Virus record (IMG/VR): IMGVR_UViG_3300020205_001316
DNA length: 64,000 bases
Reading direction: 5' to 3' (one strand)
Source: an uncultured virus (IMG/VR IMGVR_UViG_3300020205_001316)
Taxonomy: Duplodnaviria; Heunggongvirae; Uroviricota; Caudoviricetes
The position numbers were made by a program, and so were the translations under genes. This document shows, one piece after another, positions 1-64,000 of the stretch (its first letter is position 1; every line of letters starts with the position of its first letter). Under the pieces are notes generated by a model. The model was not told where the DNA came from. It saw nothing but the letters and a program-made list of their open reading frames with translations, and did no database searches.

Positions 1-923
1 AAGTTTACTTCATTGATTGTAGATTTCAATGATTTGATTACTGAAATAGCTTCTGCTAATTCTTTCTTCAATCTTTTTGATTCTTCTACTTTCTCTTTTT
101 CATCTTCTTCTGCTTTTTCTTCATCTTCTAACTCTTTGATGATTTCTTCGATATTCATATCGTCTTTGTCATCTTCATCATTGTCATCACTTTCGTTTTG
201 AGCAATAACTGCATCTGGTTCATCTGCATTCATTACTGTATCAACTTCATCAGCTGCTTCAGCTTGAACATCATCGTGTCCCATTGCATTGTAATCATCT
301 TCTGATTCCATATCATCAGAACCACCATGTAATTCGTCTTCCAACTCTTTAATGATTGCTTCTAAATCTAAGTCATCTTCTGATTGTTGGTCATCATTGT
401 TACCATCAAATGATTGTTGGTCGTCTTGTCCACCGAATTCATCTTCTGCACCTTCTTCTTTTGCAAATGGATTAGTGTTTGCTGTTAAATCTTCTCCATC
501 TTCACCATTTTCTTCTGTAATAGATTTTTCAAATGTGTAATCTTCTACTTCAGCTTCTGGTTTTTTAGAAGTTGATGTAACATCTGCTGCACCTAATTTG
601 TCTTCTGCACCAGCGTTGTGTTCAGTTGGTTTTTTGTTGTTCTGTCCTGATGTTGTACCACCAGTACCAGCACCAATGTTAGAAGAGTTGTAATCTTCTT
701 CCATTTTGTCTTCTTCTTTCTCATCATCTTCACCATAAACTTCTTTCATTTCATCTTCTTCAGATTCTTTGTCTTCAGCTTCGGCTCTTAATTTCTGAGA
801 TAGCATAGACTTCAATCTTGGTGTAAATGCTTCCTCTAACTGAATCTTAGCATTAGCCAAGGCAGTTTCGCGAACAGCTTTAGCATCAGCGATTGCTTCT
901 TTCAATAATTTTGAACTTGCCAT
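1..923 (-). CDS. Prohead core/scaffolding protein (partial, runs off the left edge)
   Basis: Not in the ORF track. Read manually from ATG at 923: MASSKLLKEAIADAKAVRETALANAKIQLEEAFTPRLKSML..., then a long D/E-rich low-complexity region and a coiled coil (ELAEAISVIKSLKSTINEVNL). It lies downstream of the prohead protease, where T4-like scaffold genes precede the major capsid gene. Confidence 0.75.
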   Translation of the reverse strand, partial: MASSKLLKEAIADAKAVRETALANAKIQLEEAFTPRLKSMLSQKLRAEAEDKESEEDEMKEVYGEDDEKEEDKMEEDYNSSNIGAGTGGTTSGQNNKKPTEHNAGAEDKLGAADVTSTSKKPEAEVEDYTFEKSITEENGEDGEDLTANTNPFAKEEGAEDEFGGQDDQQSFDGNNDDQQSEDDLDLEAIIKELEDELHGGSDDMESEDDYNAMGHDDVQAEAADEVDTVMNADEPDAVIAQNESDDNDEDDKDDMNIEEIIKELEDEEKAEEDEKEKVEESKRLKKELAEAISVIKSLKSTINEVN

Positions 924-932
924 TTCTTTATG

Positions 933-939
933 TCCTTTT
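933..939 (-). promoter_or_regulatory. Shine-Dalgarno-like site (AAAAGGA) of the scaffold gene
   Basis: AAAAGGA lies 9 nt upstream of the ATG at 923. Confidence 0.5.
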
Positions 940-945
940 GATTTG

Positions 946-1063
946 TTAAGCCATTATAGGATTAGGCGGCTTAAATAGAATTTTGATATTCTTTCGGAAC
1001 TCTATATGAGATAGAGTATTCATCGAGTATCTTTAATAAAATAAATTCTACATTATGTAGAAT
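946..1063 (-). other. Structured 5' leader of the scaffold/capsid operon (three inverted repeats)
   Basis: Stems at 946-952/968-974 (ttaagcc/ggcttaa) and 999-1005/1011-1017 (actctat/atagagt), plus a perfect palindrome at 1045-1063 (attctacat-t-atgtagaat). Confidence 0.55.
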
Positions 1064-1069
1064 ATATAA

Positions 1070-1078
1070 TATACATAT
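1070..1078 (-). promoter_or_regulatory. Variant late element ATATGTATA (1 mismatch to ATATTTATA)
   Basis: Located at the 5' end of the structured leader upstream of the scaffold gene. Confidence 0.4.
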
Positions 1079-1098
1079 ATACTTTTTATAGAAAACGA

Positions 1099-1338
1099 TT
1101 AAAGTCCGATGAATTTTTTCGGAATTTGTTTTAAATTTAGGAATTCAATTGCGTTTTTAGATGTTCTTAATTGTTTTCTAACTGCCGCTTCTTTTTGAAC
1201 TCTTTTTTTAGCAGAAGGTTTTGTGAAATATTTTCTATCTCTTAGTTGCTCAACCGTCTTAGAATCCTGCCATTTCTTTTTTAAGGTCTTTAATGCTTTT
1301 TGTAAATTGTCGTTATTTACGTTGTCGATAATAATCAT
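1099..1338 (-). CDS. rpsU: Phage-encoded 30S ribosomal protein bS21
   Basis: Basic 79-aa protein with the bS21 signature (ALKxLKKK...LRDRKYFTKPSAKKR). Located among head genes, as described for bS21-carrying Bacteroidota phages. Confidence 0.9.
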   Translation of the reverse strand: MIIIDNVNNDNLQKALKTLKKKWQDSKTVEQLRDRKYFTKPSAKKRVQKEAAVRKQLRTSKNAIEFLNLKQIPKKFIGL

Positions 1339-1363
1339 TCTTTATTTTTGTTTGTAACTTATA

Positions 1364-2002
1364 TTAGTGTTTATGATGTCCACCACAACCACAATCGTGT
1401 TGCTCATTACATCCACAATCTGATTTGCTTTCTTTTACTACTGATTCGTTAGGAACACAATTAGGAACTTGTCTACCACCCTTATCCTTCATTCCAATTT
1501 GTTTATATCCTTTCCAACACGGTCCCTGGTCTTCACTAACGTTTTGTGGCATTAATGCATTTAACTTAGATGATTGTTCCATCTTAGGAGGTCTCTTACC
1601 TAATCTAAAATCAGCATCTTCATCACTAATTTCTTGCATATCAAAATATCTACCTAAAACGTGTCCCATATCTTCATATAGAGAACTCATTCTTTGTTGT
1701 AATTGTTTTGCTTCTAATGCACTCTTTTCGAATTGTGCAGATAACTTTCCTAAATCACCCATATTACGTTTAACCGTTGCAGGATCAAAGTTATTTCCAC
1801 TTTCTTTTACTGCGAATGTTGTTGCAGCATCTACGATACCACCCAATGTATTTGCAATTTCTGCTAAATCATGTTCAGCTTGTAATTTTCTACCAAATGC
1901 TTTATAGGTAGAAATCACCTCTAAGAAATGTCTTCTTGCTTCGTTGTGCATAGGTGATTGTTGTTGCTTATCTTCACCCATTAATTTTTTTAACTTTATC
2001 AT
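1364..2002 (-). CDS. Putative capsid-internal/head protein
   Basis: N-terminal MIKLKKLMGE leader, the PCWKGYKQIGMK..GGRQVPNCVP module seen in phage head proteins, and a Cys/His-rich C-terminus. Confidence 0.55.
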   Translation of the reverse strand: MIKLKKLMGEDKQQQSPMHNEARRHFLEVISTYKAFGRKLQAEHDLAEIANTLGGIVDAATTFAVKESGNNFDPATVKRNMGDLGKLSAQFEKSALEAKQLQQRMSSLYEDMGHVLGRYFDMQEISDEDADFRLGKRPPKMEQSSKLNALMPQNVSEDQGPCWKGYKQIGMKDKGGRQVPNCVPNESVVKESKSDCGCNEQHDCGCGGHHKH

Positions 2003-2007
2003 ACTAT

Positions 2008-2016
2008 TATAAATAT
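2008..2016 (-). promoter_or_regulatory. Putative late promoter element ATATTTATA
   Basis: Exact intergenic copy 5 nt upstream of ATG 2002. Confidence 0.6.
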
Positions 2017-2017
2017 A

Positions 2018-2317
2018 TTAAAATGAACTATTGATTAACTTATAGTCCTTTTCGGATAATTCTTTCTTTGCTTTCTTTAATAACTTATCAACCATTTCAT
2101 CTCTTTTCTTTTGGTCAGCTGGAGTTATTGAACCATTTTTAATGTGGTCTTTTTTGATTTGGTTTAATTTATTAACTGCATCTCTATCATCCATATAGAT
2201 TGCCAATTCAACTGCCGCTTCACTATGTTCATTTCTATCGGTCATTTTACTAACCTTTTTGTTGAATGCTTCTGCTGGATTGTATGCTTCCCCTAATAAA
2301 TCTTTTAACTTTATCAT
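2018..2317 (-). CDS. Small putative capsid-internal protein
   Basis: MIKLKDLLGE leader; AGAGGAG SD-like site 8 nt upstream; adjacent to the prohead protease. Confidence 0.55.
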   Translation of the reverse strand: MIKLKDLLGEAYNPAEAFNKKVSKMTDRNEHSEAAVELAIYMDDRDAVNKLNQIKKDHIKNGSITPADQKKRDEMVDKLLKKAKKELSEKDYKLINSSF

Positions 2318-2898
2318 TAGTTTAACTCCTCTATAATTTGTCTCATTAAATCTTGTGCCTTACAAAATCTACCACACTCATCTATTTCTCTACTTACACC
2401 TTCGTTTACCGGAGTTAAGAATGCTCCATGTGTTGAAGGGTTAGAAACGAAATCAAATCCAATCAATTCAAAATCTTCTTGTACCATTACCTGGTCATTT
2501 CTCATTGGTTTAACTGAACCTAATCCTCTACTACTAATACCTAAACGAATATTGTTTTTGAATAATTCTTTTAAGATGTTTCCAGATGGTGTAGATAATA
2601 CTTCTACTGTCCCAACTAAATCAGTACCATCAAAATGCATTTCTACAATATTATGAGAAACGTTTTTAAGGTTGATTATAGTCGATTCTGGATGGTCTAA
2701 TTCTCCTAAAGCTCTTCTTTCATTAATCAATACATCGTACTTCTTTGCCTCTCTCATTAAGATTGCCATAGGGTATATACGATTGTTCTGATTAGGTGCA
2801 TCTGCTCTTTGTAAAACGCCCTTAACCAAAAACTTTCCGTTTTGGTCTTCACTAATCTTTCCTTCAAATAAGGTATGTTCTATTAATAATGGTTTCAT
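2317..2898 (-). CDS. Prohead core protease (T4 gp21-like)
   Basis: Motifs NxNNRIYP, GELDHP, GISSRGLGS and FDFVSNPS. Confidence 0.92.
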   Translation of the reverse strand: MKPLLIEHTLFEGKISEDQNGKFLVKGVLQRADAPNQNNRIYPMAILMREAKKYDVLINERRALGELDHPESTIINLKNVSHNIVEMHFDGTDLVGTVEVLSTPSGNILKELFKNNIRLGISSRGLGSVKPMRNDQVMVQEDFELIGFDFVSNPSTHGAFLTPVNEGVSREIDECGRFCKAQDLMRQIIEELN

Positions 2899-2906
2899 CT
2901 TATTTT

Positions 2907-3398
2907 TTAATTTATTTCGTGGTTATCATCGTTACTTAAATACTTAAATTGTTTTTGCATACCATTCCAATAATTATCATCATCTGGATTTTTATGTTTA
3001 TTAAAAATATTTATTTTATTTAACAATCCTTTTAATCCTTTTTCATCTTTACTTTTTTGATAATCCACTTTTAATTTATCATATTCTTTTTTTCTATCTT
3101 TGTAAAAATTATCCATATCATATTGATATCCTTTAAGTCCACTTTTAGTTGCCAATGTCATAGCTGCTTTTCTAGCAGGATGTGTTGCTGGATATCCCAT
3201 AGCTGTTTTTACAGATATTTCGTTTCCTGTTTCAGAGTTTACTACTTTCAATTTTTCAAACTTATCTCTTAACTCTTTATTCTTTTTTACTAATGCAAGT
3301 CTTTTTGCTTTTTCGGCAGGTTTTTCTCTACGCTTAGGTGAAGCAATAAACGGTACAAAAAATTCGTTTAATAAATCTCTTAATTTAATATGAGCCAT
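2907..3398 (-). CDS. Putative capsid-internal protein
   Basis: IKLRDLLNE leader; carries an NxETGxxIxVxxAxxYxxxHPAxxAA module shared with ORF 11712-15644. Confidence 0.5.
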   Translation of the reverse strand: MAHIKLRDLLNEFFVPFIASPKRREKPAEKAKRLALVKKNKELRDKFEKLKVVNSETGNEISVKTAMGYPATHPARKAAMTLATKSGLKGYQYDMDNFYKDRKKEYDKLKVDYQKSKDEKGLKGLLNKINIFNKHKNPDDDNYWNGMQKQFKYLSNDDNHEIN

Positions 3399-3399
3399 A

Positions 3400-4251
3400 C
3401 TATGTTAATAATTTATAATATTCGTTGAAATGTTTGATTCTATCAGGTAATCCGATAGTTCCACCATTTACTCTTTTTGTGATTGATGTTACTACTGCAT
3501 CATTTGCACCACCATCAGCCATTTTGTGTAATCCATTTTTATTGAAGAACCAAGCTGCTGAAGCTAATGCATATTTACTTGCTACCAAATCAGGGTTTGC
3601 AATACAATCTTCACCAATTGATTTAGTGAATGCTGTATAATTTTCTTTTCCTGTTAATTGTATAAATCCTCTACCATGAAACTTCCAACCTTCACCACTT
3701 GCTTCTGCACCATTACCCATTCTACCACCATATACTTTGTTGGCGATTTTCTCTGGTTTTCTTTCGTATGGAACTGCTGACTCTAATGTTGGGAAATATT
3801 TTTTAAAGATACCATTCAACCCTTTAGCTGAATAGTTTAGATTTTCTTTTGTTAATTTGAACCCACCACTTTCATGTCCACATTGTGCTAAGAAATGTGC
3901 CAATCTCAATGGAGTGTTGATTTCAAACTTAGATGCTACTTCAGGTATCATTGCTATAACACTATCCGGAATATGTCCTTTTAATGTATCTAACTTTAAA
4001 CCAGTTGTATTTGCTACCGGAGTTGGTGTTGATACTACTGCAGGTGTTACCGGAGCTACTGCTTCCGTAATACCCATAATTGGATTCCAAGTTCCGTTTC
4101 CTACAATACCATCTGCTGTTAAACCATTCTTTGATTGAAATGCTTTTACTGCTTCCTCAGTTTTAGGACCATAGTTTCCTATTGGCTCTAAACCTAATTT
4201 AGTTTGTAGTTGTTTTACACTTTCGTTATTATCACCTCTTTTCAATAACAT
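3400..4251 (-). CDS. Endolysin: peptidoglycan-binding domain plus glycoside hydrolase family 19
   Basis: N-terminal PG-binding repeat (LKRGD...VKQLQ...YGPKTEEAVKAFQ..NGLTADGIVGNGTW); GH19 motifs AHFLAQCGHESGG, GRGFIQLTG and TKRVNGG. Confidence 0.9.
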   Translation of the reverse strand: MLLKRGDNNESVKQLQTKLGLEPIGNYGPKTEEAVKAFQSKNGLTADGIVGNGTWNPIMGITEAVAPVTPAVVSTPTPVANTTGLKLDTLKGHIPDSVIAMIPEVASKFEINTPLRLAHFLAQCGHESGGFKLTKENLNYSAKGLNGIFKKYFPTLESAVPYERKPEKIANKVYGGRMGNGAEASGEGWKFHGRGFIQLTGKENYTAFTKSIGEDCIANPDLVASKYALASAAWFFNKNGLHKMADGGANDAVVTSITKRVNGGTIGLPDRIKHFNEYYKLLT

Positions 4252-4268
4252 ACAAATATCCTCTCTAA

Positions 4269-4769
4269 TTATTTTCTTTTTTTAGATTCGTTCTTACTTC
4301 TTAATTTAGCTAAATCAGAACCTTCGATTTCACCATCACCATCTACATCTAATTTCTTTTGTCCACCACTTAATTCAGCTTCTTTGATTTTCATTCTTTC
4401 TTTTAATTCAGTTTGAATACCCTTAACTAAAGTAAAGAATTTTTTCTTTTGTTCATCACTTAAATCAGCTGGAGAATTAACACCAAACTTACTTAGCATT
4501 TTTTGAAAGATTCTCTGATATTCAGATTCTTCTTTCATTACTTCTCTTACGATGTTTTTGAAATGCTCTCTACTTAATTGAATTTTATCATCACCTTGTG
4601 TTTGAGGTAATCCGTTTGCTACATTAGTTGGTTCGGATTCTTCACCCATACCACATTCACAAACTGCTTTACCACATTTCGGGCAAACTGATTCTTCTTC
4701 TTTAACTAATTTATGACTTCTTGAAGCCATTCCCAATGCTTGCATCGGTACTAATCCTGATAATTTCAT
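4269..4769 (-). CDS. Modular head-associated protein
   Basis: CPKCGKAVCEC knuckle, an EYQxxFxKxLxKFGVxSPxxL module and an EF-hand-like LDVDGDGEIEGSDL segment. Modules are separated by xKE-type sites. Confidence 0.5.
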   Translation of the reverse strand: MKLSGLVPMQALGMASRSHKLVKEEESVCPKCGKAVCECGMGEESEPTNVANGLPQTQGDDKIQLSREHFKNIVREVMKEESEYQRIFQKMLSKFGVNSPADLSDEQKKKFFTLVKGIQTELKERMKIKEAELSGGQKKLDVDGDGEIEGSDLAKLRSKNESKKRK

Positions 4770-4773
4770 AATA

Positions 4774-5439
4774 TTATGCTTTTTTTAATCTTACTGATTG
4801 ATATTTATCCATTTTTGTTAAACTCTTTAATTGTGATTGTGCTGAGTTTTTCGGAGCTGGTTTTGTTATTGTTCTTCTATCTGCATTTTTACTTGCACCT
4901 TTTGGAGTTGCAGTAACTACATATTTATCCAAAGCCATAGGTTTTGTACCTTCAACTTCTTCAATGTTAGTTTCACTTTCTGCTTTATCTATTTCTTGTA
5001 TAGAACTTGCAATTTTAATGATTCTTTCTTTAATTCTGTAAATGTTTGTATTGGTTCTTTTAAAGAAGTCATTTTTACCTAAATTGTTTTCACTTCTTAA
5101 TCTATTATACCAATTAACAAATCTTTCAATTTCTGCTAATTGATTTTTAACTTCTCTAATACCATGTGATACTTTTTGAGATGGAGTTCTTGTTTCATCT
5201 CTTTTTAAATCTAACCAACGATTTTCATCTATACTCTTAGCAAATTCAAATCCTTCACCTGATGATTTAACTTTACGTTTGATATCACCCTTAGTATCTT
5301 TACCAAATGCAAATGGTGTATTGTATCCATCAGCCGATGCCGTAGTATTTTCCTCTTCGATTTTTTTTTCTCTGAGTTTAGTACGAATCGTTTCTTTTAA
5401 TTTAGATATATCTTCGTTAGATAATTCCTTTTTGAACAT
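4774..5439 (-). CDS. Hypothetical head-module protein
   Basis: 221-aa ORF in the head operon; AAGGA 8 nt upstream; no recognisable catalytic motif. Confidence 0.5.
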   Translation of the reverse strand: MFKKELSNEDISKLKETIRTKLREKKIEEENTTASADGYNTPFAFGKDTKGDIKRKVKSSGEGFEFAKSIDENRWLDLKRDETRTPSQKVSHGIREVKNQLAEIERFVNWYNRLRSENNLGKNDFFKRTNTNIYRIKERIIKIASSIQEIDKAESETNIEEVEGTKPMALDKYVVTATPKGASKNADRRTITKPAPKNSAQSQLKSLTKMDKYQSVRLKKA

Positions 5440-6295
5440 CGCTCAATTCCTTTTCCAATTCATAACACATAATCAAAGATGTGATATGATTGTCTTTTAT
5501 TTTTTGTGAATTACCAATTTTTGATAACTGATTCATTGTTTCTGCTAATTTGATTTTTGTAACCTTATCATTAATTTTAGAAGAAATTCTTTTGAATTCT
5601 TTTATTAACGATTTAACTTCACCAACTACATGGTTTTTTAAATTATCAGAGTTAGTGTAAGAGTTTATATATTCTTTTAATAAACTTTTTTGTTTATCAT
5701 TAAGATTATTATATTTTTTATTAAAACTATCTACTAACATTTTATAAGAAAGTAATTGAATTTCTTTATCTTCTTTCTTTAAATCTGTATGTATTGTAGT
5801 TTCTGCTAATGTTTTATTTGATGGTGTTTTACCAATTAAATGTTCAACTAATGTATATTTTGTATTTACGAAATCTTTAGGGTCGTAGTTTTGGTCAACA
5901 TTTACTTTGTATTCAAATATTTTATATACTGATGCTAACACTTTGTAGTTAGGTATTTGAGAACGTAAAAAATCTTCAATTGCGTAATTATCTTTAATTT
6001 CTTTAATTAAATTATATTTTTCTTTTAAGATTTTCTTTTCATCTAATTTAGCTCTACTTTCTACCACAGCATCAACAAAGCGTTCTGCTCTATTTTCACT
6101 ATTATATCTTTCCGATACAATAAATTGATATAATTTCAACTCATTAGACAATTCAGTCTTTGAATTAAAGTATTTTTTTAATAATCCTTCTGCTATACCC
6201 TTTCTATTGTTAAGGATATCAGAGGTTACTTGTCTTACTAGCAATTCAAATAAAAAGCCGGTATTTCTGAATTTTGAATGTTTAATTTGTCTCAT
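5417..6295 (-). CDS. Hypothetical helical protein downstream of portal (head assembly?)
   Basis: 292-aa ORF beginning MRQIKHSKFRNTGFLFELL; follows the portal gene and has its own late element. Confidence 0.55.
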   Translation of the reverse strand: MRQIKHSKFRNTGFLFELLVRQVTSDILNNRKGIAEGLLKKYFNSKTELSNELKLYQFIVSERYNSENRAERFVDAVVESRAKLDEKKILKEKYNLIKEIKDNYAIEDFLRSQIPNYKVLASVYKIFEYKVNVDQNYDPKDFVNTKYTLVEHLIGKTPSNKTLAETTIHTDLKKEDKEIQLLSYKMLVDSFNKKYNNLNDKQKSLLKEYINSYTNSDNLKNHVVGEVKSLIKEFKRISSKINDKVTKIKLAETMNQLSKIGNSQKIKDNHITSLIMCYELEKELSDVQKGII

Positions 6296-6314
6296 TTATA
6301 TACATTATTCCATT

Positions 6315-6323
6315 TATAAATAT
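6315..6323 (-). promoter_or_regulatory. Putative late promoter element ATATTTATA
   Basis: Intergenic, 19 nt upstream of ATG 6295. Confidence 0.6.
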
Positions 6324-6341
6324 AAGGTGTTATAATAAGAA

Positions 6342-8228
6342 TTAGTTTTCTATGATATTTTGTTCATCTAACATAGATTTTCCTTCATTTATTATCTTTG
6401 AACCACCTTTAGTTATGTTTTTCTTTAACATATCTATAAAACTTTCGTTTTTATATTGATTTTTTAAGTCTTTACTACCAGTTACATCTCTACCAAATGG
6501 AGATTTATCTTTACCACGTGTTGAATATTCTTTAGGTCTACCTGCTAACTTAGCTTCTTGTTGTGGTTCTTCTTCCGTATCCTCACCACCCAATTGTGCT
6601 TTTAATTTTTGGATTTGGTCTTCAACATTTAATGGTTCGCCGTTTGGTGTTGGTTCTTCCTGTGGTTGTTCGTCACCTTCAATTGGTGGTTCATCTGTAT
6701 CCATAGGTTGTCCATTTTCATCACTTCCTAATGGTGGTTGTTGACCCATCATACCTTGTTGGTCTTGTGGTTTTTCAGTACCAGTTGTTTCTAAATTGGT
6801 AAGTTTAAAAGTAAGCATTGCATCTTTCTTTAATCCCTCAACTTGTAAAGCTGCTTCTTCGTAACTGAAATTAAGTATATTTTTATACATCCATTCTTTA
6901 GAAATTACTTTTAATTGGTCCATTTTTTGAATCAATTCCATTTTCATTGTCCAAAGATTAACTTTCTCTTGTTCGTATATTAATGATGGTAATGTTAATT
7001 CTAATTCAAAGTTTGTTAATTCACTATCATCAATACCTTGTGAGTATAAGTGAGCAATTGCAATCTTTTCTAACCCATCAACTACAATTCTTTGTAATCT
7101 TTCGATAGTTTTTGCAAATCTCATATCCATTGCTGCTAATGTAGCTTTAGAGTTTCCATCTTCTAAGTAACCTAAATGTTGTTTAGGTATCTTTAATGCT
7201 GCAAACATCTTATTCTTTAAGTAATCTATATCTTCAATTGGTGCGTACTCTAACCCATCTAAGTTTGTAATTTCAGTACCACTATCATTACCTCTAACCG
7301 GTAAATAGAAATCTTCCATTAAGTTTTGAACATTATACTTTAAGTTATACTCACCTGTATCTGCGTTCACATATGGAGTTTTCTTTGATTTGTTTATAAT
7401 TCTTTGAATGTATTGGTCTACTTCATTTGGAGCAATACCACCTACATCAATTTTGAATATTCTTTTTTGAGGAGCTCTTACAATTCTATGAATAATCATT
7501 GCATCTTCCATCAATGATATTTGTTTCCATAATCTTCTAGCACCTTCTAATAGTGATTTTCCATAAGGTAAGAAGTTTGTATCTGATAATAAACGGAAGT
7601 GAGCAATCTCATAGTTTTCATATTCAGTTTTTTGTCCTGCTATGAATAATGATTTAGTTGCTAATGGAGTATGAACAAACTTTACGGCTTGCCAATTGTT
7701 TGGGTCAAATCCTTCTACTCTCGTAATTTCATATGCCGATAATGGTTGAACCCCTACTATACCTAAGTTTTCTGCAATCTCTAAATGTAAAAAGAAATCA
7801 CCATACTTAACCATATTTCTAACCCAAGGCCATAAATTGAATTCTACATTTACTACATCATAGAATAAGTTAGTTAAGATATCTTTAATATGGTCATTAT
7901 TGGTTTTTATTTCAATAACTCTACCATATTCATTTCTACTCGTTGATTCGTCTGCATATATGTCTAATGCCGATGTGATGATTGGATCCTGGTCCATTGA
8001 ATCATAATCTCTAAATAACTCTTGTCTTATTTGTTGATAAGCCAAATAGTTTTCAAATGTATTGTTCATTGCTGATGAATGCAATCTCATATACCTATCT
8101 CTAAGATTGGTAGCTATTGCCTGTGTTTCATCGTAATCAATTACCTTTAACTTTCCACCTTGATTTCTTACGATAACCGCTGTTGAAAATAATTTCTTTA
8201 ACCTGCCGTAAAATGAAGTATCTGCCAT
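6342..8228 (-). CDS. Portal protein (T4 gp20-like)
   Basis: Motifs LMEDAMIIHRIVRAPQKRIFKIDVG, EDFYLPVRG..SGTEITNL and DIDYLKNKMFAALKIP; acidic low-complexity C-terminal tail. Confidence 0.93.
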   Translation of the reverse strand: MADTSFYGRLKKLFSTAVIVRNQGGKLKVIDYDETQAIATNLRDRYMRLHSSAMNNTFENYLAYQQIRQELFRDYDSMDQDPIITSALDIYADESTSRNEYGRVIEIKTNNDHIKDILTNLFYDVVNVEFNLWPWVRNMVKYGDFFLHLEIAENLGIVGVQPLSAYEITRVEGFDPNNWQAVKFVHTPLATKSLFIAGQKTEYENYEIAHFRLLSDTNFLPYGKSLLEGARRLWKQISLMEDAMIIHRIVRAPQKRIFKIDVGGIAPNEVDQYIQRIINKSKKTPYVNADTGEYNLKYNVQNLMEDFYLPVRGNDSGTEITNLDGLEYAPIEDIDYLKNKMFAALKIPKQHLGYLEDGNSKATLAAMDMRFAKTIERLQRIVVDGLEKIAIAHLYSQGIDDSELTNFELELTLPSLIYEQEKVNLWTMKMELIQKMDQLKVISKEWMYKNILNFSYEEAALQVEGLKKDAMLTFKLTNLETTGTEKPQDQQGMMGQQPPLGSDENGQPMDTDEPPIEGDEQPQEEPTPNGEPLNVEDQIQKLKAQLGGEDTEEEPQQEAKLAGRPKEYSTRGKDKSPFGRDVTGSKDLKNQYKNESFIDMLKKNITKGGSKIINEGKSMLDEQNIIEN

Positions 8229-8239
8229 ATTATTTTATA

Positions 8240-8773
8240 TTACCATTTTCTACAAGACCAGTATCTTGCTTTTGTTCTAGGTCCTGGATTATCACAATTA
8301 TGTCTAGCTCTAAACGATTTTCTCGCTTTTGGGTTAGATTTTCTTATTCTCATTGTTTTTTCACCTTTAGCTGCTGCGGATGTTCCACCATGTCCAAAGT
8401 TTACTTTAACAACTTTACCAGCTGGATTCTTTACATACACTTTAAACTTCTTAACATCACCTTGCGTTGGTTTACCCAATTCAACTTTTCTACCTTGATA
8501 TTCTGCTTCATTTAAAGATTCATTGTATGCATCTTTTTCTTTAACTTTAATTTTAAGAAAAGATATAAAATCTTCCATTTCTTCTATATCATCCTCATCT
8601 ACATCATACTCATCAATATCGTCATCATCGATATCTTCTTTTATTTTACCAAATGCTTTAGCAAATGGATTAGAATAAACTTTACCTAATTCTATTTGTT
8701 GACCATCGGGCATAGTGTGACTTGACTTACTCAAAGATACACCATAAAATTCATATAAAAAACTTTTCTTCAT
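8240..8773 (-). CDS. Head-associated protein with DUF6321-like C-terminal domain
   Basis: AEYQGRKVELGKP...RKSFRARHNCD...ARYWSCRKW domain following an LNE site. Start moved to ATG 8773 (SD-like AGAAAGGA 7 nt upstream) rather than TTG 8794. Confidence 0.6.
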   Translation of the reverse strand: MKKSFLYEFYGVSLSKSSHTMPDGQQIELGKVYSNPFAKAFGKIKEDIDDDDIDEYDVDEDDIEEMEDFISFLKIKVKEKDAYNESLNEAEYQGRKVELGKPTQGDVKKFKVYVKNPAGKVVKVNFGHGGTSAAAKGEKTMRIRKSNPKARKSFRARHNCDNPGPRTKARYWSCRKW

Positions 8774-8796
8774 ATTATTTTCCTTTCTATACAATA

Positions 8797-8805
8797 TATA
8801 AATAT
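8797..8805 (-). promoter_or_regulatory. Putative late promoter element ATATTTATA
   Basis: Intergenic, 23 nt upstream of ATG 8773. Confidence 0.6.
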
Positions 8806-8809
8806 TATA

Positions 8810-52343: not shown

Positions 52344-52350
52344 CTTATTA

Positions 52351-52381: not shown

Positions 52382-52436
52382 CTTAAGTTATGTGTTTGGT
52401 TTTTGTCCTACGATACTCCCAAACAAATCTTTTTTA

Positions 52437-53663: not shown

Positions 53664-53680
53664 ATTCGTTTGTTATTATT

Positions 53681-54304: not shown

Positions 54305-54323
54305 AGTTTGTTTATTATTCTGT

Positions 54324-54332
54324 TATAAATAT
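54324..54332 (-). promoter_or_regulatory. Putative late promoter element ATATTTATA
   Basis: Intergenic, 19 nt upstream of ATG 54304. Confidence 0.6.
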
Positions 54333-54359
54333 ATAAAATATTTTTTTGTTACATTATTT

Positions 54360-57300: not shown

Positions 57301-59234
57301 GATGTCTGTGAACCACTTAAAATCAAATTATCATATGATTCAAATCCAGTAGATTGTCCGCCTACAAAATCAATATCAATATTAAAATTAGCGGCCCTTA
57401 ATGGAATACAAATATCATCGGCTACACCACTTAATACTACTGATTGTAAAATAGGTAATGCACTTAATTCGGAAATCCAAAGTGTGTCATTTTTATTTAT
57501 ATTAGTAGGTAATGGTTCGTATAATTTTATTACAACACTTTTATTTATTTGACCGTCTGGAATTTGGTTACCTAATTCATCTGTTTTAAATTTAGTAAAC
57601 GTAGTATTATCAACATCCCAATTTGAAATTACAATTTGTTTATCATCTTTATCAAATGATGCTAAATGATTTAAATATTTTGGTTTGCTTAAATTAAGTT
57701 TTAATTGAGATGAAATTGCATTAAACAATTCATCTTTTAAATTTTGAGTAGAAACATAAAATCCAGGATCATCAAATGAAATACTTATTCTTTCTATTTC
57801 ACCTTTAATGGAGCCGTTGTAAGGTACTAATAATAAATCAAGTATACCATTTTTTACAAATGTCTTTAAATTATTATATGTACTATTGTAACTTGTTTTT
57901 GCTGCACCATTTGCTAATAGATAATTATCATCTTCTTTGGTATGATATACTAATATTTTTGTTGCTAAATTAGATTCATATTCAATTTTAAATGCAACAT
58001 CTCCAAAACTATAAATTGGTATTATTACTACTGTAGGATAATCTATTTTATCTATAATAGGAACATCAAATGTTTTTGATATTGTTACAATAGTTGGTTG
58101 TGTAATACCATCACCAAACACATTTGAATATGGTGTTAATAATATTTTAAATTGACCCTCATTATTTAAAAAATGAGTTTTTAAATCTAATGTAATTTTT
58201 TTAGTATCAACTGCTTTAGTAGAAATATCATATACAAATTCTTTATATGGGGTGGTAATTCTAACGGAATCTGAATTTTCTAATGTAAATTCAATATTAA
58301 TATCAGCTGATGCTGTTTTTGAATCAAATATTGATTCTAATATTTTTGCATTAAAATTTTTATATGAATCGGAAATTGTTAATTTAGGATATAGGATATC
58401 ATTAGGTTCTACTTCTATTAAAACTATAATGTTATTATTAAAAATATTTGCTGGTATTATAACTTCTATACCATTAGTTCCTATAATATTAAAATCATTT
58501 ATATCAAATGTACTATTACTATTAAATTTACTAGCATATTGCCATCTAATATTTTTAGGTTTAAATTTAGCTAAACCAGATACTAATATTTTAACATCAT
58601 CAATTGTATATCCTATAATGTCAATATCATTTTTAACACCCAAATTAGTTAAATCATATTGAACACCATTTGATGTTACTCGTATTTTTAATTCATTTAT
58701 TAAATCTGCATTTAAAAAATTACTTACAAATGATATGTTTTGAATTTTAGTAACAACCGGATCACGTTTAGGTTTAGCTGCTTCTATATCAAATCCCAAC
58801 TCAATTGTCAATGGTAGTATGCAATCTTTTGTTGATTGTATATCACCATTTTCATTATATGCGTTTAAAGTTATACCATTTATTGTTTTTTTAAATTCAA
58901 AATAATTTTTTGAAATATACCCATCATTAATAGTGGGTTTAATTAATAAACTATCATTTATTGTATTTGAATCAATTGAAACTGAATTTGTTTCTTGATA
59001 TGTTTGACCTTGTACATCGAAGGTCATTTGATTTTTAAAATTGGTAGAATTTTTAAAAGTAATTCGTATATCATTACCTCTTACCTTTGGTGAATACACT
59101 GGTGGTGTTGAACCACCAATAGTGCCACTATTACCATATACTCCGGTATTTTCATTTAAAATATCTAATGAAGTAAACGGAATGTAGTTACCACCCATCA
59201 TATTTTTTGAATACAAATTTTCTAAATATCCCAT
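54360..59234 (-). CDS. Large baseplate wedge-type protein with LamG-like domain
   Basis: 1624 aa; FLDMIGNYFD and NLPYLLKHKGSHRGIKALL (baseplate wedge/P2 gpI-like core); FKGHLEEIRLW (LamG-like). Confidence 0.6.
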   Translation of the reverse strand: MGYLENLYSKNMMGGNYIPFTSLDILNENTGVYGNSGTIGGSTPPVYSPKVRGNDIRITFKNSTNFKNQMTFDVQGQTYQETNSVSIDSNTINDSLLIKPTINDGYISKNYFEFKKTINGITLNAYNENGDIQSTKDCILPLTIELGFDIEAAKPKRDPVVTKIQNISFVSNFLNADLINELKIRVTSNGVQYDLTNLGVKNDIDIIGYTIDDVKILVSGLAKFKPKNIRWQYASKFNSNSTFDINDFNIIGTNGIEVIIPANIFNNNIIVLIEVEPNDILYPKLTISDSYKNFNAKILESIFDSKTASADINIEFTLENSDSVRITTPYKEFVYDISTKAVDTKKITLDLKTHFLNNEGQFKILLTPYSNVFGDGITQPTIVTISKTFDVPIIDKIDYPTVVIIPIYSFGDVAFKIEYESNLATKILVYHTKEDDNYLLANGAAKTSYNSTYNNLKTFVKNGILDLLLVPYNGSIKGEIERISISFDDPGFYVSTQNLKDELFNAISSQLKLNLSKPKYLNHLASFDKDDKQIVISNWDVDNTTFTKFKTDELGNQIPDGQINKSVVIKLYEPLPTNINKNDTLWISELSALPILQSVVLSGVADDICIPLRAANFNIDIDFVGGQSTGFESYDNLILSGSQTSQQIVDKYLVENFIDVNGINIDYSNFSNFVKYSSAVERLANFRYKKELAELYQTNIDILSDSTSITAQLDSVNIETKKTNLLTGLDSWETYLTQSIFTGSFITSFNSYGQPEEYDSNTATLYTSYLNTAAEFDKNNNNALKNNIPLHIVEDNGNIDYLLFLDMIGNYFDIIWSYIKGMSDQKKIAETNTDGIEDKFLYQYLQSFGWNPKNLNSNKQLWDYTFGYNNSGVTGSFTSDEHLGENIELITPEKATHQVWRRIANNLPYLLKHKGSHRGIKALLTCYGIPSSNLSIMEFGGPNIDIVEDAPKFIYESLTHNLVFDNISASLEIPFTGTPKPQSIEFKFKPNEFENYMLLTGSGDFKLEIVKDTASSIIGSKYGYIRVNGSSVDSSYPFYDGNYHSILLNKSSSSVNVYAKTNDKDRIIHSGEWTKNITGSNYEATSTLSFTGFKGHLEEIRLWETNLSESVFNNHVIMPEAINGNHLHSSTQDLLLRLDFERPQNLASNRTINNIAPSLTYVAAVSASGFATASAYPFNYDVLEREVALTIPNSGASRYYTNKVRLESQELVNNLSPIKRATKKAFESSTKDSNRVGLFFSPNKDLDLDIAKSLGGESFDDFIGDPQYEYNTINYPELDNLRNYYFERVGERNLYEFIRLIKFYDKSLFVNLKEMLPVRAVTTTGLLIAPHLLERNRIKINRPEATAESLDGVITETQITDLSSTFDYKEANLNLTASIENISGVNETLDGTLIASNTYNFNAEVDSITTTINTDLENVADASYITYEGEIDFRLKDPTILTELDLNYGNSIIGFDRYSDYGYGTYFNNGYGKYFYEENGSVKSKGIRAFLVTKQNTILTQLTVNGVSGSEQNIVTSSYSQELIVQDFSASVGLKLNGKDKIVAITTASGYLPSHYIYKGDKHSGIENLFYRGCKQTSYIENGVTSSYTTIDGKSPVETFTTNPTTLRVTSQGRSNNEPILEVD

Positions 59235-59238
59235 TGAG

Positions 59239-59247
59239 TATAAATAT
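59239..59247 (-). promoter_or_regulatory. Putative late promoter element ATATTTATA
   Basis: 4 nt upstream of ATG 59234. Confidence 0.6.
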
Positions 59248-59260
59248 CCTTATTTAATTT

Positions 59261-60484
59261 TTATTTTTGATAATCTTGATAAAGTGAGTTATCTACTTGA
59301 CCATAATTAAATTCACCAGGCATTGTTTGATTTCTTCCTCCACCTCTTCCACCTCCTCCACCATAGATAGGTGTAGGTTCAATAACTTTAATTGGTTGTG
59401 GTGGAACCGGAGGTACTATAACAGATGCAGTAACAGGTGGTGTAGTATTTATTACAACACTTGATTGTTTAACAACTCCTAATTTATTATTTTGTGTTAA
59501 ATTACTTTTTGATATGTAATTTGTATTAATTAATGATTGTAATAACTGAGAATCTACTTTGGTTTGTGTGTAATCTTTTGTTATTTGTGGGATATCATAG
59601 AATGCTAAAGATTTTGAATTATAATCAATGGATTCATGTAATCTATTATGTAACATATTTAATATTTCATCTGCAGAATAAAACTCATCCATATCAAATG
59701 AATTATTTGATATTTTACCATAATTAGATGATTGTATATTAAATTCTTTTCCTTCTAATTGGTAATTAACTGACTTTTTAAAATCGATAAATATTTTTTG
59801 TTTAAATTTAGTATATGTAAGTTCATTACCAAATTTAAATTCTTTAATAATTGAATCTAACCAAATTTTACCATGTTTAGTCACAAAATATGCATCAATT
59901 AAATCACTAATTTGGGTTTCAATCGAATCAATTGCATTTTTAATTACATCTACTAATTCTCTTAGTTCACTTGTTTTAGTTAGAAACGTATTATATCTAT
60001 GTTGAATTTTGTTATTATTTTCAGCATCTATACTTAATAATGGCATTACTCTAATTTCGCTTCTACTTGGTGAAATTTCATGTATCCAAACTCTTTGTTT
60101 TTTATCTTCGTTTCCTACATAGTTTTTTAAAAAATTAAAAGAAACTTTAAACTGACCATTTCCATATCCAGATTCTCTAATTAATTTTTCAACATCAATA
60201 TCAAATATTTTTTCTTGTGTTATTGTATCGATATCACTTTTAAGATATTTTGATAAATTATCTTTATGAATATATCTTACTTTTATACCACCGGTTTGTT
60301 CCAATAAATTATTAGAAATATCATATACTCTAAATTCAATAACATCATTTTTTGACATTCCAAAATCAGTAATGTTTTTTGCACCTGTTTTGAATATCTT
60401 TAAATCTTTGGATTCTACTAATTGCGCAGTACCATCTAAATTAAGATTTATATTTTCAATATTTTTAAAATCGTTTATTGCCAT
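59261..60484 (-). CDS. Hypothetical tail-module protein
   Basis: IHEISPSRSEIR motif; Pro-rich and poly-Gly C-terminal tail. Confidence 0.55.
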   Translation of the reverse strand: MAINDFKNIENINLNLDGTAQLVESKDLKIFKTGAKNITDFGMSKNDVIEFRVYDISNNLLEQTGGIKVRYIHKDNLSKYLKSDIDTITQEKIFDIDVEKLIRESGYGNGQFKVSFNFLKNYVGNEDKKQRVWIHEISPSRSEIRVMPLLSIDAENNNKIQHRYNTFLTKTSELRELVDVIKNAIDSIETQISDLIDAYFVTKHGKIWLDSIIKEFKFGNELTYTKFKQKIFIDFKKSVNYQLEGKEFNIQSSNYGKISNNSFDMDEFYSADEILNMLHNRLHESIDYNSKSLAFYDIPQITKDYTQTKVDSQLLQSLINTNYISKSNLTQNNKLGVVKQSSVVINTTPPVTASVIVPPVPPQPIKVIEPTPIYGGGGGRGGGRNQTMPGEFNYGQVDNSLYQDYQK

Positions 60485-60490
60485 AATTTA

Positions 60491-61726
60491 TTAGTTATAT
60501 GAATGAACTTTACCTTGGAATGTTTTACTTTCTACTTTACCACCTTTATCTATATCTGTTACTGTAATTGTAATTGTTTCTTCGTAATCAGTATATTTTT
60601 TTTGTGTTGCACCAAATATAGCCGCACCTATTGCAACTGCCGCTAATGCTGCCCAACCAACCGGACCTAATGCACCCAATATTGCTGCACCCGTACCAAG
60701 TGCAGCAGTAGTACCCGCCACCACTAATGCGGCACCGGCAGCTGCAGATGCCACTGCACCTGCAGCTATATAAGCCCCCGTAGCTACTGCAATTGCACTC
60801 GCTGCATATGCTGCATTTTTTAATCCCTTATTTTTAGGTGAAGGAACTGCATATATATTCGGTTTATCAAATTTAAATCTATCTTGTGAATTTGCTTTTA
60901 ATGTAAATGTTGATGGAACTAAAAAGAATGTTTGTTTAATATCTACTTTAATATCTTTAGGTCCAGCGATTACATCAACATATCCACTGCTCCATGCCTT
61001 AGCGTATCCCGCCGGTCCTTTTACTTTTTGACCACCATCTGATAAATCCATATCGTAAGCCAATCCTTTAGCTTCTGTGTTTTTAGCGGGGTCACCTTTT
61101 TCCCAAAGTATAGTAGCTAACTCACCAGTTGAAACACCCCCTGCTGCTATTGCCTGTGCTTTTGCACTTAATTGTTGTTGTGCTACTTGTAAACTTGCAT
61201 TTGCCTGAGCTAATAAATTGTTTAATGTATCTATTTGTTTAATTAATGCATTCTTTTGTGCCGTTAAACCACTATTCTCAGCTTCCAATGTTGTTCTTTC
61301 GGTTGCTTCATTAATTGCTTTAGTTAATGATGTTGTTAAACTAGTTCTTAATTCTAACGTTGTTTGTTGTATAGATACTATTGTATTTTCTAATTTAGCA
61401 TTTGTAACTTTTAAATTATCATTATCAATATATAAAGAACTACTATCCGATTTTAATGATTCAACTTGAGATAATAGGCCATCAACTTGTATCTGTAATG
61501 TATTTATTTCTCTTTCTAATTCTAAACTATGCGATACTTCTGCATCATAAACCGGTTTTGGTATTAAATCTAAATTAGTTTCCGGCAATGCTTTAATTAA
61601 CTCTATAACTTTAGTATCTACCGATTTTATTAACTCGGCTGTATTATATTGGTCAACATATAATTTTGTATTTATATTGTTGTCAACATTATCCGATATG
61701 TTAATATATGTTTTATCTATTGCCAT
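60491..61726 (-). CDS. Coiled-coil protein with long Ala/Gly hydrophobic segment
   Basis: Heptad region at about aa 65-190; a ~70-aa uncharged stretch ending LGPVGWAALAAVAIGAAIFGA. Confidence 0.55.
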   Translation of the reverse strand: MAIDKTYINISDNVDNNINTKLYVDQYNTAELIKSVDTKVIELIKALPETNLDLIPKPVYDAEVSHSLELEREINTLQIQVDGLLSQVESLKSDSSSLYIDNDNLKVTNAKLENTIVSIQQTTLELRTSLTTSLTKAINEATERTTLEAENSGLTAQKNALIKQIDTLNNLLAQANASLQVAQQQLSAKAQAIAAGGVSTGELATILWEKGDPAKNTEAKGLAYDMDLSDGGQKVKGPAGYAKAWSSGYVDVIAGPKDIKVDIKQTFFLVPSTFTLKANSQDRFKFDKPNIYAVPSPKNKGLKNAAYAASAIAVATGAYIAAGAVASAAAGAALVVAGTTAALGTGAAILGALGPVGWAALAAVAIGAAIFGATQKKYTDYEETITITVTDIDKGGKVESKTFQGKVHSYN

Positions 61727-63561
61727 TATTTGTAAATATCAAATGTACCGATTTCAAAAATTTCTTCATTATCGTCATCGATTGATTTTACTAATAATGT
61801 GTAGTTTCTACCAACTGACCAATTTGAAAAATTTAATTTTATTAAGTTATTAAATTCACCTTGTATAACTCTACTTGCATCTGAATATCCTATTATTGTT
61901 TCTTTTGTTAAAGTATCAATTATACTATAATATGCAGTTGATGGTAAGTAGTATTTTACTTGATATGCAAACGTAGTGTTAAATTGTTTAACTGGATATA
62001 ATTCTCTTGCATCAATTTTAAGTGTTACTTTTTGTCCTTGACGATATGATGTTTTTAAATTTGGTGAATAACATCTATACGAAACATCATAACTACTACT
62101 ATTAATAAAATCAGTAATTGTTGTTAAATCTCCACCCACCACATCATCTTCTAAATAAGTAATAACTAATTTAGGTTGATATATTGTATTAGTTTCTTTT
62201 GAGAACATTTTAATACTGCCATAATCAACTGAACCGGTTTCTTTATCAGTTGGAAATTTAAGTATAATACCATTATTTGCTATACTACCACTATTCCATT
62301 TTTTAACAAATGAAGTAACATCTAAATTAATATCTTCTATGGTGTATTGGAACGATTGTGATGCTACCGAAGATGTAAACCATGTACCACCAAGCCCAGT
62401 ATCAGAACCGGTTGTGAAGGCGTTAAAACTAGCTCCTTGTCCGTCTACATATGTATTGTTCCAAATAGTAGATGTATCATCTCCGTTTTTATAGTACCAA
62501 GTTGCACCATTTGTAGTAATTTTATCAAAACGAGTACCAGTACCATTTTCCCAACTTTGAGAAATTGGATATGCTTCAATATTAAAACTAGCAGCAATTT
62601 CATCTGCCTTAGTTATTTTTAATTGTAATGATGCACTAAACGGGAAATCATATCCACCATTTTGAATTGTACTTAAAATTGATTGTGATGTTGCATTATA
62701 TGATGCACTAATGGTACTAGAACTTATATCTGCTAGTTGCCAAATTAAATACTTTATATTTTTACTTTCATTTAATGTAAAAATTGATGCGGATAATATT
62801 GAAGCCGATGCTTGTAATTGAGGTATTTGTTTTCCCGCAAATATAGATGCCGATGTAGGTATATTATTTACTGCTATGTTAAATAAAACATTTAATTCAT
62901 CAATTTCATTTCTTAATGAAGATGATTGTAACAATAATGATGCCGATTGTTCTAATTGTGTAACATATGATTGTGAAATTGCATTAAAAGATGCACTTAA
63001 AGTATTGTCGGTTATTGAACTTGTTAATGCTGAATTATTTAATGTAAAATACGAAGATGACATTAAACTATATGATTCTGATATACCTGTTATTGTTGAA
63101 TTTATAATTGCAATTGATGCACTATTGGGAATTATTTGATTATATATGGATTGAGAAGCTTCTAAATAATCTGCAGAAATGGAAGTTGCGGTAATTGTTG
63201 TATAAGTAAATAAGGATGCCGATACTACACTAGCACTTGCATTTGTAATAAATAATGATTGTGATGTTGTACTATATGATGCAGATAAATAATTAGAAGC
63301 AGAAACACTAGATGACCAAGAACTAGAAATTAAATTATTACTATATATCGAAGATGATATCGTTTGTAATTTTGTATTTTGTAATTCAAATATACTTTTA
63401 GATATTTCCGTAGTATCAAACTGAATTAATACTCTACTAATATCCGGGGTTGAACCATAATCTACTCTTGAAATTTCTAGTATTTCATCTATACCAGTGT
63501 TTTGGTAAGGTTGTTGTAAGTATATAGTTGCATCTTGTGATGCTGTATAAAATAATATCAT
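61726..63561 (-). CDS. Tail/baseplate structural protein with Ser-rich insert
   Basis: DATIY...NTGIDEILEI...SRVLIQFD; W.NGTG; NNGIILK...FSKETNTIYQPKL; central SxS-dense region. Confidence 0.55.
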   Translation of the reverse strand: MILFYTASQDATIYLQQPYQNTGIDEILEISRVDYGSTPDISRVLIQFDTTEISKSIFELQNTKLQTISSSIYSNNLISSSWSSSVSASNYLSASYSTTSQSLFITNASASVVSASLFTYTTITATSISADYLEASQSIYNQIIPNSASIAIINSTITGISESYSLMSSSYFTLNNSALTSSITDNTLSASFNAISQSYVTQLEQSASLLLQSSSLRNEIDELNVLFNIAVNNIPTSASIFAGKQIPQLQASASILSASIFTLNESKNIKYLIWQLADISSSTISASYNATSQSILSTIQNGGYDFPFSASLQLKITKADEIAASFNIEAYPISQSWENGTGTRFDKITTNGATWYYKNGDDTSTIWNNTYVDGQGASFNAFTTGSDTGLGGTWFTSSVASQSFQYTIEDINLDVTSFVKKWNSGSIANNGIILKFPTDKETGSVDYGSIKMFSKETNTIYQPKLVITYLEDDVVGGDLTTITDFINSSSYDVSYRCYSPNLKTSYRQGQKVTLKIDARELYPVKQFNTTFAYQVKYYLPSTAYYSIIDTLTKETIIGYSDASRVIQGEFNNLIKLNFSNWSVGRNYTLLVKSIDDDNEEIFEIGTFDIYK

Positions 63562-64000
63562 TATAATGCTCTCCCTTTGATATCGGTATTAGGAAACTTC
63601 AATTCAAAAATAGAAGGGTCTAATGATGGATATACAATTTTATTCTTAGTTGCTGCTTTAATATCATATATGTATTTAGAATAACTTTCCATAGAACCAT
63701 CCCCACATATATTTGTTATTTCAACACTTGGTACCGATGATACACCCTCTACATTTGCAATATCCAATTCTAATTCACTAATATTAATTGGTTGATTTAT
63801 TTTTCTATTATATACGTTGAAATAATTAGTAATAGCTTGTACACAATTTAATATAACTTCTCTCTTATTATAATTTGAGTAAGTTGTTATTTCAAAATTT
63901 ACACCTACATTTATAACAAATCCATCTAATATATTAATTGCATCTGTAATTAATCTATACTCATTTAAATATGTTTTTAAGTTATTTTTAGTTGAATTAT
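63561..64000 (-). CDS. Baseplate wedge subunit (T4 gp6/BplJ-like), C-terminal part
   Basis: The frame is open to the window edge: NLKTYLNEYRLITDAINILDG...INQPINISEL..IANVEGVSSV...PSIFELKFPNTDIKG*. The ORF track shows only the last 68 aa. Confidence 0.75.
   Translation of the reverse strand, partial: NSTKNNLKTYLNEYRLITDAINILDGFVINVGVNFEITTYSNYNKREVILNCVQAITNYFNVYNRKINQPINISELELDIANVEGVSSVPSVEITNICGDGSMESYSKYIYDIKAATKNKIVYPSLDPSIFELKFPNTDIKGRAL

Follow-up and report, generated by a model that had tools for sequence, protein, structure and literature searches.

Shine-Dalgarno-like sites before the virion genes

The window, a stretch of 64,000 nucleotides (nt) from a lake phage, the uncultured virus record IMGVR_UViG_3300020205_001316 in IMG/VR, carries Shine-Dalgarno (SD)-like sites before a set of its virion genes, together with a gene for the ribosomal protein bS21. 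Its 56 complete genes and one cut gene all lie on the minus strand, its G+C content is ~29%, and Pfam and PHROGs matches identify it as a T4-like myophage whose closest named relatives by portal are Flavobacterium phage immuto (49%) and Microcystis phage Mel-JY01 (47%). The head, packaging and lysis module (1..11680, minus strand), delimited with Pfam and PHROGs, holds the large terminase (8810..10399; Terminase_6N), the T4-type portal (6342..8228; Portal_T4), an endolysin with PG_binding_1 and GH19 domains (3400..4251), the prohead protease (2317..2898; Peptidase_S77), the bS21 gene (1099..1338; 79 amino acids (aa); PF01165, phrog_21469) and a scaffold-like gene of ~400 aa (3..923) that is cut by the window end. 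The scaffold-like gene lies directly upstream of the major capsid gene, which is outside the window; the full scaffold-like gene and the capsid gene are both visible in the relative L100. The non-virion block (11712..50725, minus strand) contains replication genes (endonuclease I, primase, a fused SbcD-SbcC and a 1265-aa protein), a glycan island and a protein of 1310 aa that resembles cytidylyltransferases. The baseplate and tail-fibre module (50725..63998, minus strand) was assigned through its homology to 83.7-93.4 kb of immuto, annotated from baseplate wedge to tail fibre, because PHROGs and Pfam gave no family match in this block. We class the head and baseplate modules as virion genes by homology and synteny with T4-like head, packaging, baseplate and tail genes.

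An earlier note on this DNA had listed eight SD-like sites, and all eight were found on the minus strand with the letters and spacing it gave. For counting, we defined an SD core as AGGA, GGAG or GAGG ending 5-10 nt before a start codon, with the expectation taken from all sense-strand positions. A core precedes 9 of the 56 window starts against 1.81 expected (p=7e-5), the cores at 7-9 nt spacing give p=4e-7, and almost all core matches within 0-40 nt upstream of starts fall at 7-10 nt. The head block (1-11700) has a core on 6 of 15 starts (0.54 expected) and the baseplate block (50731-64000) on 2 of 8 (0.21 expected); the middle block is at background level, with 1 of 33 (1.09 expected). The difference between the virion modules (8/23) and the replication and glycan block (1/33) is significant (Fisher p=0.002), which bears out the proposal that the sites concentrate on late or structural genes. 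The control starts offered with that proposal as simply A/T-rich (36992, 41648 and 49276) are indeed A/T-rich and have no core. Misplaced starts were considered as a cause of the SD-free block and rejected, as only one alternative start there has a core.

The genome-wide check of anti-SD pairing energy that the note had called for gave a divided answer. When duplexes with CACCUCCUU were scored over -20..-3, 11 of 56 starts reached -4.5 kcal/mol or lower against a background of 14.9% (p=0.2). Because the purine-rich sense strand (40% A, 17% G) raises this background, we replaced the wide test with the spacing-restricted counts above and a narrower energy test, using the Bacteroidota-type tail CACCUCCUUUCU over -18..-5. 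Here 5 of 56 starts reached -8 kcal/mol or lower against 1.6% (p=0.002), and all five are in virion modules. The tail was taken from the complements of rpsU SDs and the residue numbers of Jha 2021, and may not be the host's. With it, the nine sites form 4-8 contiguous pairs at -5.9 to -10.2 kcal/mol.

Codon choice can be examined at the sites that lie inside upstream genes, which the note had described as using GAG and AAG against the preference of the genome. These are indeed minority codons, GAG accounting for 12.5% of Glu codons and AAG for 15% of those for Lys, and GGG is rare as well. Sites within genes are built from AAG GAG, GAG GAG, AAG GAA and GGG AGA. Under synonymous-codon resampling, the virion modules have 4/7 in-gene sites against 0.47 expected (P=9e-5), and so exceed a codon-preserving shuffle. 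The middle block has 1/26 against 0.18 expected.

The individual sites, all on the minus strand, are as follows. Before the endolysin gene, AGAGAGGA (4259..4266) lies 7 nt from ATG 4251 in intergenic sequence, with a duplex of -10.1 kcal/mol. Also intergenic is AGAAAGGA (8781..8788), 7 nt before ATG 8773 of a 177-aa gene between terminase and portal, which makes 8 base pairs with the tail ..UCCUUUCU (-10.2 kcal/mol), as is AAAAAGGA (51123..51130), 8 nt before ATG 51114 of a 129-aa gene at the end of the baseplate and tail-fibre module. Both the 8773 and the 51114 sites are downstream of a promoter-like motif, TATTTATA, which is taken up below. Inside the protease gene, AGAGGAG (2326..2332) is written as GAG GAG, 8 nt before ATG 2317 of the 99-aa gene that follows, and has a probability of 0.13 under synonymous resampling. 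Further in-gene sites are AAGGA (5448..5452), written AAG GAA, 8 nt before ATG 5439 of a 221-aa head-module gene; AAGGAG (11045..11050), written AAG GAG, 7 nt before ATG 11037 of a 212-aa gene upstream of the large terminase; and AAAGGGAG (63571..63578), written AAA GGG AGA, 9 nt before ATG 63561 of a 611-aa gene next to a baseplate wedge homologue. The scaffold-like gene has AAAAGGA (933..939) 9 nt before ATG 923.

In the non-virion block, a core at SD spacing occurs once, as GGAG (17909..17912), 7 nt before ATG 17901 of a 304-aa glycan-cluster gene. It was absent from the earlier list, and the orthologue in the window-type contig G005 reads CCGGAA, so the core is lost. A second unlisted motif, AAGGA (59247..59251), lies 12 nt before ATG 59234 of a baseplate-module gene of 1624 aa. 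As it falls beyond the 5-10 nt range and precedes the TATTTATA at 59239-59246, it probably does not work as an SD. Two further observations concern starts: AAAGGGA is only 2-3 nt before ATG 50725, too close for an SD role, and within the gene at 4269..4769 an SD core precedes the in-frame ATG 4745, which may be the true start of that gene.

Conservation and recurrence of the split

To follow the sites in relatives, we used 80 IMG/VR loci, each surrounding a portal homologue, with identities between 100% and 50%. At the endolysin site, 14 of 18 distinct upstream sequences from orthologues retain a core, although the letters vary (GAGGA, GAGGT, GGAGA, GAGGG). The remaining sites are kept in 2/5 to 9/15 relatives, with turnover to other head genes: the 2317 site in 2/5, the 923 site in 3/9 distinct orthologous upstream sequences, the 5439 site in 9/18, the 11037 site in 7/14 and the 8773 site in 9/15, with one relative reading AAGGAGGA. 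Orthologues of the 51114 gene have a core in G005 (AAAAGGA) and probably in G002 (AAAGGAG), and the 63561 site is kept in G005 (AAAGGGAG) and G006 (AAGAGGGAG). In the distant tiers, cores are found on other head genes (terminase, protease, portal). Beyond the window, downstream of bS21, a core precedes 6 of 10 further late genes, the capsid gene among them; before bS21 itself, none of 10 distinct sequences has one. Because the motifs are enriched at a set spacing, are constructed from rare codons and are conserved while their letters change, we conclude from the sequences that they are real, selected SD elements, placed at the canonical distance and able to pair with the 16S rRNA 3′ end (..CCUCCUUUCU).

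The split between gene classes recurs outside the window. In G005, a 100-kb contig of the window type, the glycan and replication genes have no core (0/39), and a further stretch of mostly small genes has two (2/52). Pooling the window, L100 and G005 gives 14/33 virion genes against 3/85 others (P=6e-7). A more distant lineage, G006, matches the window in gene order and has a counterpart of its glycan island, with glycan genes 38-65% identical to those of the window, and repeats the split with 24/54 virion genes against 0/28 others (P=5e-6). The sister lineage G002, a complete genome, shows a weaker signal (21/221 against 9.3 expected), with cores on its sheath, tube, capsid, terminase and endolysin genes and on only 2 of ~75 genes in its small-gene region. 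In the phage lineage of the window, SD is used only for virion-building genes. We also considered whether the virion module is a recent import from a phage of an SD-using host, and ruled this out because G006, at 40-65% protein identity, shares the split with the window type, and because the sites turn over yet persist.

Comparator phages with known hosts or with other bS21 types behave differently. Among the Bacteroidota-type comparators, immuto, which infects Flavobacterium, is depleted in cores (2/211 against 18.4 expected), and no bS21 was found in its genome. Head loci with a bS21 on the opposite strand and tyrosine at position 54 (Tyr54) have cores on 1/89 genes, and G008, whose bS21 also has Tyr54, on 7/253. 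Phages of SD-competent hosts carry them widely: HTVC008M, a Pelagibacter phage with a bS21, on 66/177 (virion 21/45, other 45/132); Mel-JY01, a Microcystis phage whose bS21 is without Tyr54, on 59/228 (virion 19/48, other 40/180); and a 50-kb stretch of the Synechococcus phage S-ShM2 on 7/23 virion and 7/38 other genes. The non-virion genes of these three phages thus have cores at 18-34%, 3.6 to ~12x background. Because the comparators either lack SD or spread it over all gene classes, a sharp split with non-virion genes at background is an unusual pattern in either kind of host.

We also looked at promoter-like motifs. In the window, 11 of 17 minus-strand copies of TATTTATA stand in short spacers just upstream of genes (2008-2015, 6315-6322, 8797-8804, 11697-11704, 15648-15655, 45473-45480, 46122-46129, 51137-51144, 52335-52342, 54324-54331 and 59239-59246), and spacers of 100 nt or less hold 9 copies against 0.2 expected. 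The same enrichment occurs in G002, G005, G006, G007 and immuto, not in G008, and the motif is probably the clade's own promoter. HTVC008M shows instead TATAAATA, which we take to be the T4 late promoter. A second motif, TAnnTTTG, is enriched upstream of the early genes of G002 (18 against 4.4). In the G002 early region (~163-195 kb; L090-L091), spacers carry TTGAC, then ~18 nt, then TAnnTTTG, for example ..GACTTGACA..TTACCTTTG.., and look like Bacteroidota sigma-A promoters. The window, G005, G006 and immuto show no enrichment of TAnnTTTG; because immuto, a cultured Flavobacterium phage, is also without it, the missing enrichment carries no weight on the question of host.

Other features of these genomes can be described briefly. 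The sugar and glycan island of ~26 kb (window 15786-41648) has a lower G+C content, 25-28%, is common to the window, G005 and G006, and is absent from G002. It encodes three paralogous GT7 + Laminin_G_3 proteins, radical-SAM enzymes, 2OG-Fe(II) oxygenases, epimerases, a split thiamine pyrophosphate enzyme and an aminotransferase. At 46130-49276, one 1048-aa protein fuses an SbcD-like phosphoesterase to an SbcC-like ATPase. Giant genes lie downstream of the head module in G003 (26231-65000; 4800, 3735 and 3558 aa) and in G006 (86628-102994; 2103 and 1791 aa). Parts of the head module are covered by contigs of 90-95% relatives in lake metatranscriptomes; these contigs show neither transcript ends nor levels, and DNA carry-over is possible.

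The phage bS21 and readings of the split

The bS21 of the window matches PF01165 with 46.1 bits (cut-off 27) over residues 8-56, its best solved relative is the bS21 of Flavobacterium johnsoniae (7jil chain z), and 78 of its 80 nearest cellular loci are from Bacteroidota, at 35-50% identity. The N-terminal half is of Bacteroidota type. In an alignment that is ungapped from KPS to the column of Tyr54, the window protein has arginine at that position, as do the types of G002, G006 and G007, and no aromatic residue occurs at positions 47-65 of the window protein. In the 69 distinct C-terminal domains from cellular Bacteroidota, position 54 is Tyr in 68 and His in one. The C-terminal domain also differs in length and charge, with 37 aa and a net charge of +10 (9-11) in the window type, ending in IPKKFIGL in the window, against 22 aa and a median net charge of +3 (0-5) in cellular Bacteroidota; in Tyr54-type phage bS21 the net charge is +4. 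Tyr54 and a less basic C-terminal domain are the Bacteroidetes bS21 signatures set out in Jha 2021 (PMC7797042). By its sequence, the window bS21 is without both of these signatures of anti-SD occlusion.

Two side observations concern bS21 genes. In the relatives L100 and L096, a second 79-aa open reading frame (9738-9977) lies directly upstream of bS21, and the window is without a counterpart of that length. Tenacibaculum skagerrakense (L177, L242) and Tenacibaculum sp. MEBiC06402 (L180, L249) have two bS21 genes per genome, one with an extended GGAAGGAGGTG-type leader and the other divergent, with Tyr54 kept and no SD.

The earlier note had explained the SD-bearing late genes by a ribosome with a swapped bS21 that acts as a late translational switch. 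What stands of this are its supports, namely selected SDs on virion genes and a phage bS21 without the occlusion signatures; the switch itself is a proposal, which we tentatively favor as the best reading. It can be put as a sequence of steps. The host would be a Bacteroidota-type bacterium whose anti-SD is tucked under bS21, bS18 and bS6, and replication, glycan and early genes would therefore be SD-free and initiate in the host's way. Phage bS21, made from an SD-free message, would dock on the host 30S subunit through its Bacteroidota-like first half, bringing arginine in place of Tyr54 and a long basic tail. Ribosomes that incorporate it would expose the anti-SD and favor the SD-bearing virion messages, giving a late translational boost. 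In its full form, we hypothesize that a viral bS21 with Arg54 and a basic tail makes SD-blind Bacteroidota ribosomes SD-reading, that virion genes alone thereby gain a private late initiation signal, and that this arrangement has been preserved in at least two phage lineages with different bS21 tails; we think this possible, if somewhat doubtful. That the host ignores SD we infer from the Bacteroidota-like first half of bS21, the kinship with immuto and the SD-free non-virion genes.

The mechanism draws on work in F. johnsoniae. According to McNutt 2023 (PMC9976891), the Y54A substitution or loss of the C-terminal region raises translation of a strong-SD reporter 2- to 5-fold, ribosomes without bS21 read SD better, and bS21 is by far the commonest phage-encoded ribosomal protein; the authors speculate on phage products that aid bS21 exchange.

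Several points weigh against the switch. Mel-JY01, the closest cultured relative with a syntenic bS21, infects a cyanobacterium and has SD genome-wide, and G007, with an Arg54 bS21, has cores on 83/196 genes, throughout its genome. Because these two phages carry SD genome-wide, Arg54 may be no more than a marker of phages whose hosts use SD. Few lineages, related to one another, underlie the link between SD and bS21 type, which possibly reflects one evolutionary event. G002 has cores on DnaB and RecA as well, and G003 has them on 9/38 head genes with no bS21 in its 70-kb fragment, which is estimated to be 37% complete. The window SDs are short, whereas in F. johnsoniae only extended SDs (<-13 kcal/mol) responded to bS21 loss and a weak SD did not, as described in McNutt 2023 (PMC9976891). 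The phage bS21 gene lies inside the late head module and may be expressed too late to be a switch. Finally, Chen 2022 (PMC9723584) report an aromatic residue at position 54 in 61/61 of their phage bS21 proteins and argue that these leave the anti-SD blocked.

The main rival to the switch is a host whose anti-SD is accessible, whether an atypical member of the Bacteroidota or a bacterium outside that group. The SDs would then be ordinary high-expression signals on abundant virion proteins, and the phage bS21, with Arg54 merely as a copy of a normal bS21, would have no part in reading them. We regard this as unlikely, though it is supported by Mel-JY01, where a phage with the same gene order and a bS21 without Tyr54 is richer in SDs on its virion genes (19/48 against 40/180), as well as by the abundance of cores in G007. 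HTVC008M and S-ShM2 also lean toward virion genes, without significance, and the TAnnTTTG test is empty for the window, G005 and G006. What such a host leaves unexplained are the non-virion genes, which are at background in the window type (1/33, 0/39 and 2/52) and in G006 (0/28), whereas those of phages from SD-competent hosts have cores at 18-34%. The SD-free state has also outlasted the divergence of G006 from the window type, the window bS21 has a first half nearest to Bacteroidota bS21, and G002 has TAnnTTTG enriched before its early genes.

Late SD reading could instead follow from some other change induced by the phage, such as loss or breakdown of host bS21 or another factor at the 30S platform, with phage bS21 a bystander or site-filler. 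The improved SD reading of ribosomes that simply are without bS21 (McNutt 2023, PMC9976891) speaks for this, and the head-gene SDs of G003 occur in a fragment without the bS21 gene. That fragment is incomplete, however, and the nearest kin of G003 with a bS21 (L122, L123, L153) have the gene in the head module. G002 and G005-G008 yielded no phage bS18 or bS6, and no candidate factor was noticed in the window by PHROGs or Pfam. We consider this explanation improbable.

Still less probable, in our view, is that the purine motifs serve an RNA-binding regulator, a nuclease or a transcription start region and do not pair with 16S rRNA. T4-like phages do encode RNA-binding regulators, with RegA annotated in HTVC008M and S-ShM2, and the 8773 and 51114 sites are just downstream of TATTTATA. 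The spacing is nevertheless fixed to the start codon (7-10 nt) and not to the promoter motif, half of the sites are inside upstream genes, and the variants GAGGA, GGAGA, GAGGT and AAGGAGGA are all complementary to CCUCCUUU. Chance, or a side effect of a sense strand with 40% A and 17% G, would suit the wide energy test (11/56 against 14.9%) but is very improbable given the spacing-restricted result (p=7e-5 to 4e-7), the outcome of codon resampling, the persistence of sites among relatives and the recurrence of the split in G006.

If the bS21-swap switch is right, the locus would be a clear case of a virus reprogramming the message choice of the ribosome through the F. johnsoniae switch. It yields a concrete, testable hypothesis for the role of a phage bS21, with an effector that lacks two anti-SD-hiding features and a defined set of virion targets. 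The same genome supplies an internal control of about 30-90 SD-free genes, and relatives with Tyr54 or without bS21, which are without SD, are natural contrasts. Should the host prove to read SD normally, the sharp split between gene classes would still need an explanation.

Comparison with known systems

Among phages, immuto (vB_FspM_immuto, NC_055915) belongs to the same T4-like clade as the window, with 49% portal identity. Its baseplate, primase, terminase, portal, protease and capsid genes follow one another as in the window, and TATTTATA likewise precedes its genes (20 against 1.9 expected). It differs in having no bS21 and in its depletion of SD cores. Mel-JY01 (PP395634) is similar in portal (47%) and in its bS21, which is encoded at the same position and in the same orientation, with the protease on one side and the scaffold and capsid genes on the other, and is without Tyr54. 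Unlike the window phage, it was cultured on a cyanobacterium, its bS21 is N-terminally extended and not Bacteroidota-like, and its cores occur in all gene classes (59/228), whereas those of the window are only on virion genes save one.

A literature search that did not cover the supplementary files of Chen 2022 found no published case of SD-bearing late genes together with a Tyr54-less phage bS21. The lake myophages described in Chen 2022 (PMC9723584) come close in arrangement, with bS21 inside the terminase-portal-protease-capsid block and transcribed with late genes, and the idea put forward there is that phage bS21 selects late phage messages. Their bS21 is on the opposite strand and has an aromatic residue at position 54, and the loci of this kind among ours have cores on 1/89 genes. 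The window bS21 is co-oriented, has Arg54 and a basic C-terminal domain, and lies among SD-bearing genes. In Francisella tularensis (Trautmann 2022, PMC9578407), exchange of bS21 homologues likewise alters which mRNAs are translated. The homologues there are cellular paralogues in an SD-using gammaproteobacterium, and the account given of them involves no anti-SD unmasking.

The closest mechanistic parallel is F. johnsoniae itself, where, by the accounts of McNutt 2023 (PMC9976891) and Jha 2021 (PMC7797042), SD reading is gated by the C-terminal region and Tyr54 of bS21, and those ribosomes in which the anti-SD is free, a sub-population, prefer mRNA that bears an SD (PMC9976891). There the trigger is the absence of bS21 and the target is rpsU alone, which is autoregulated and has an extended SD below -13 kcal/mol (PMC9976891). 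We observed GAAAGGAGGTG upstream of many Flavobacteriales rpsU genes. In the window, the proposed trigger would be a viral bS21 with Arg54 and a basic tail, the targets would be many virion genes, and the SDs are short, at -6 to -10 kcal/mol, unlike the extended SD of F. johnsoniae rpsU.

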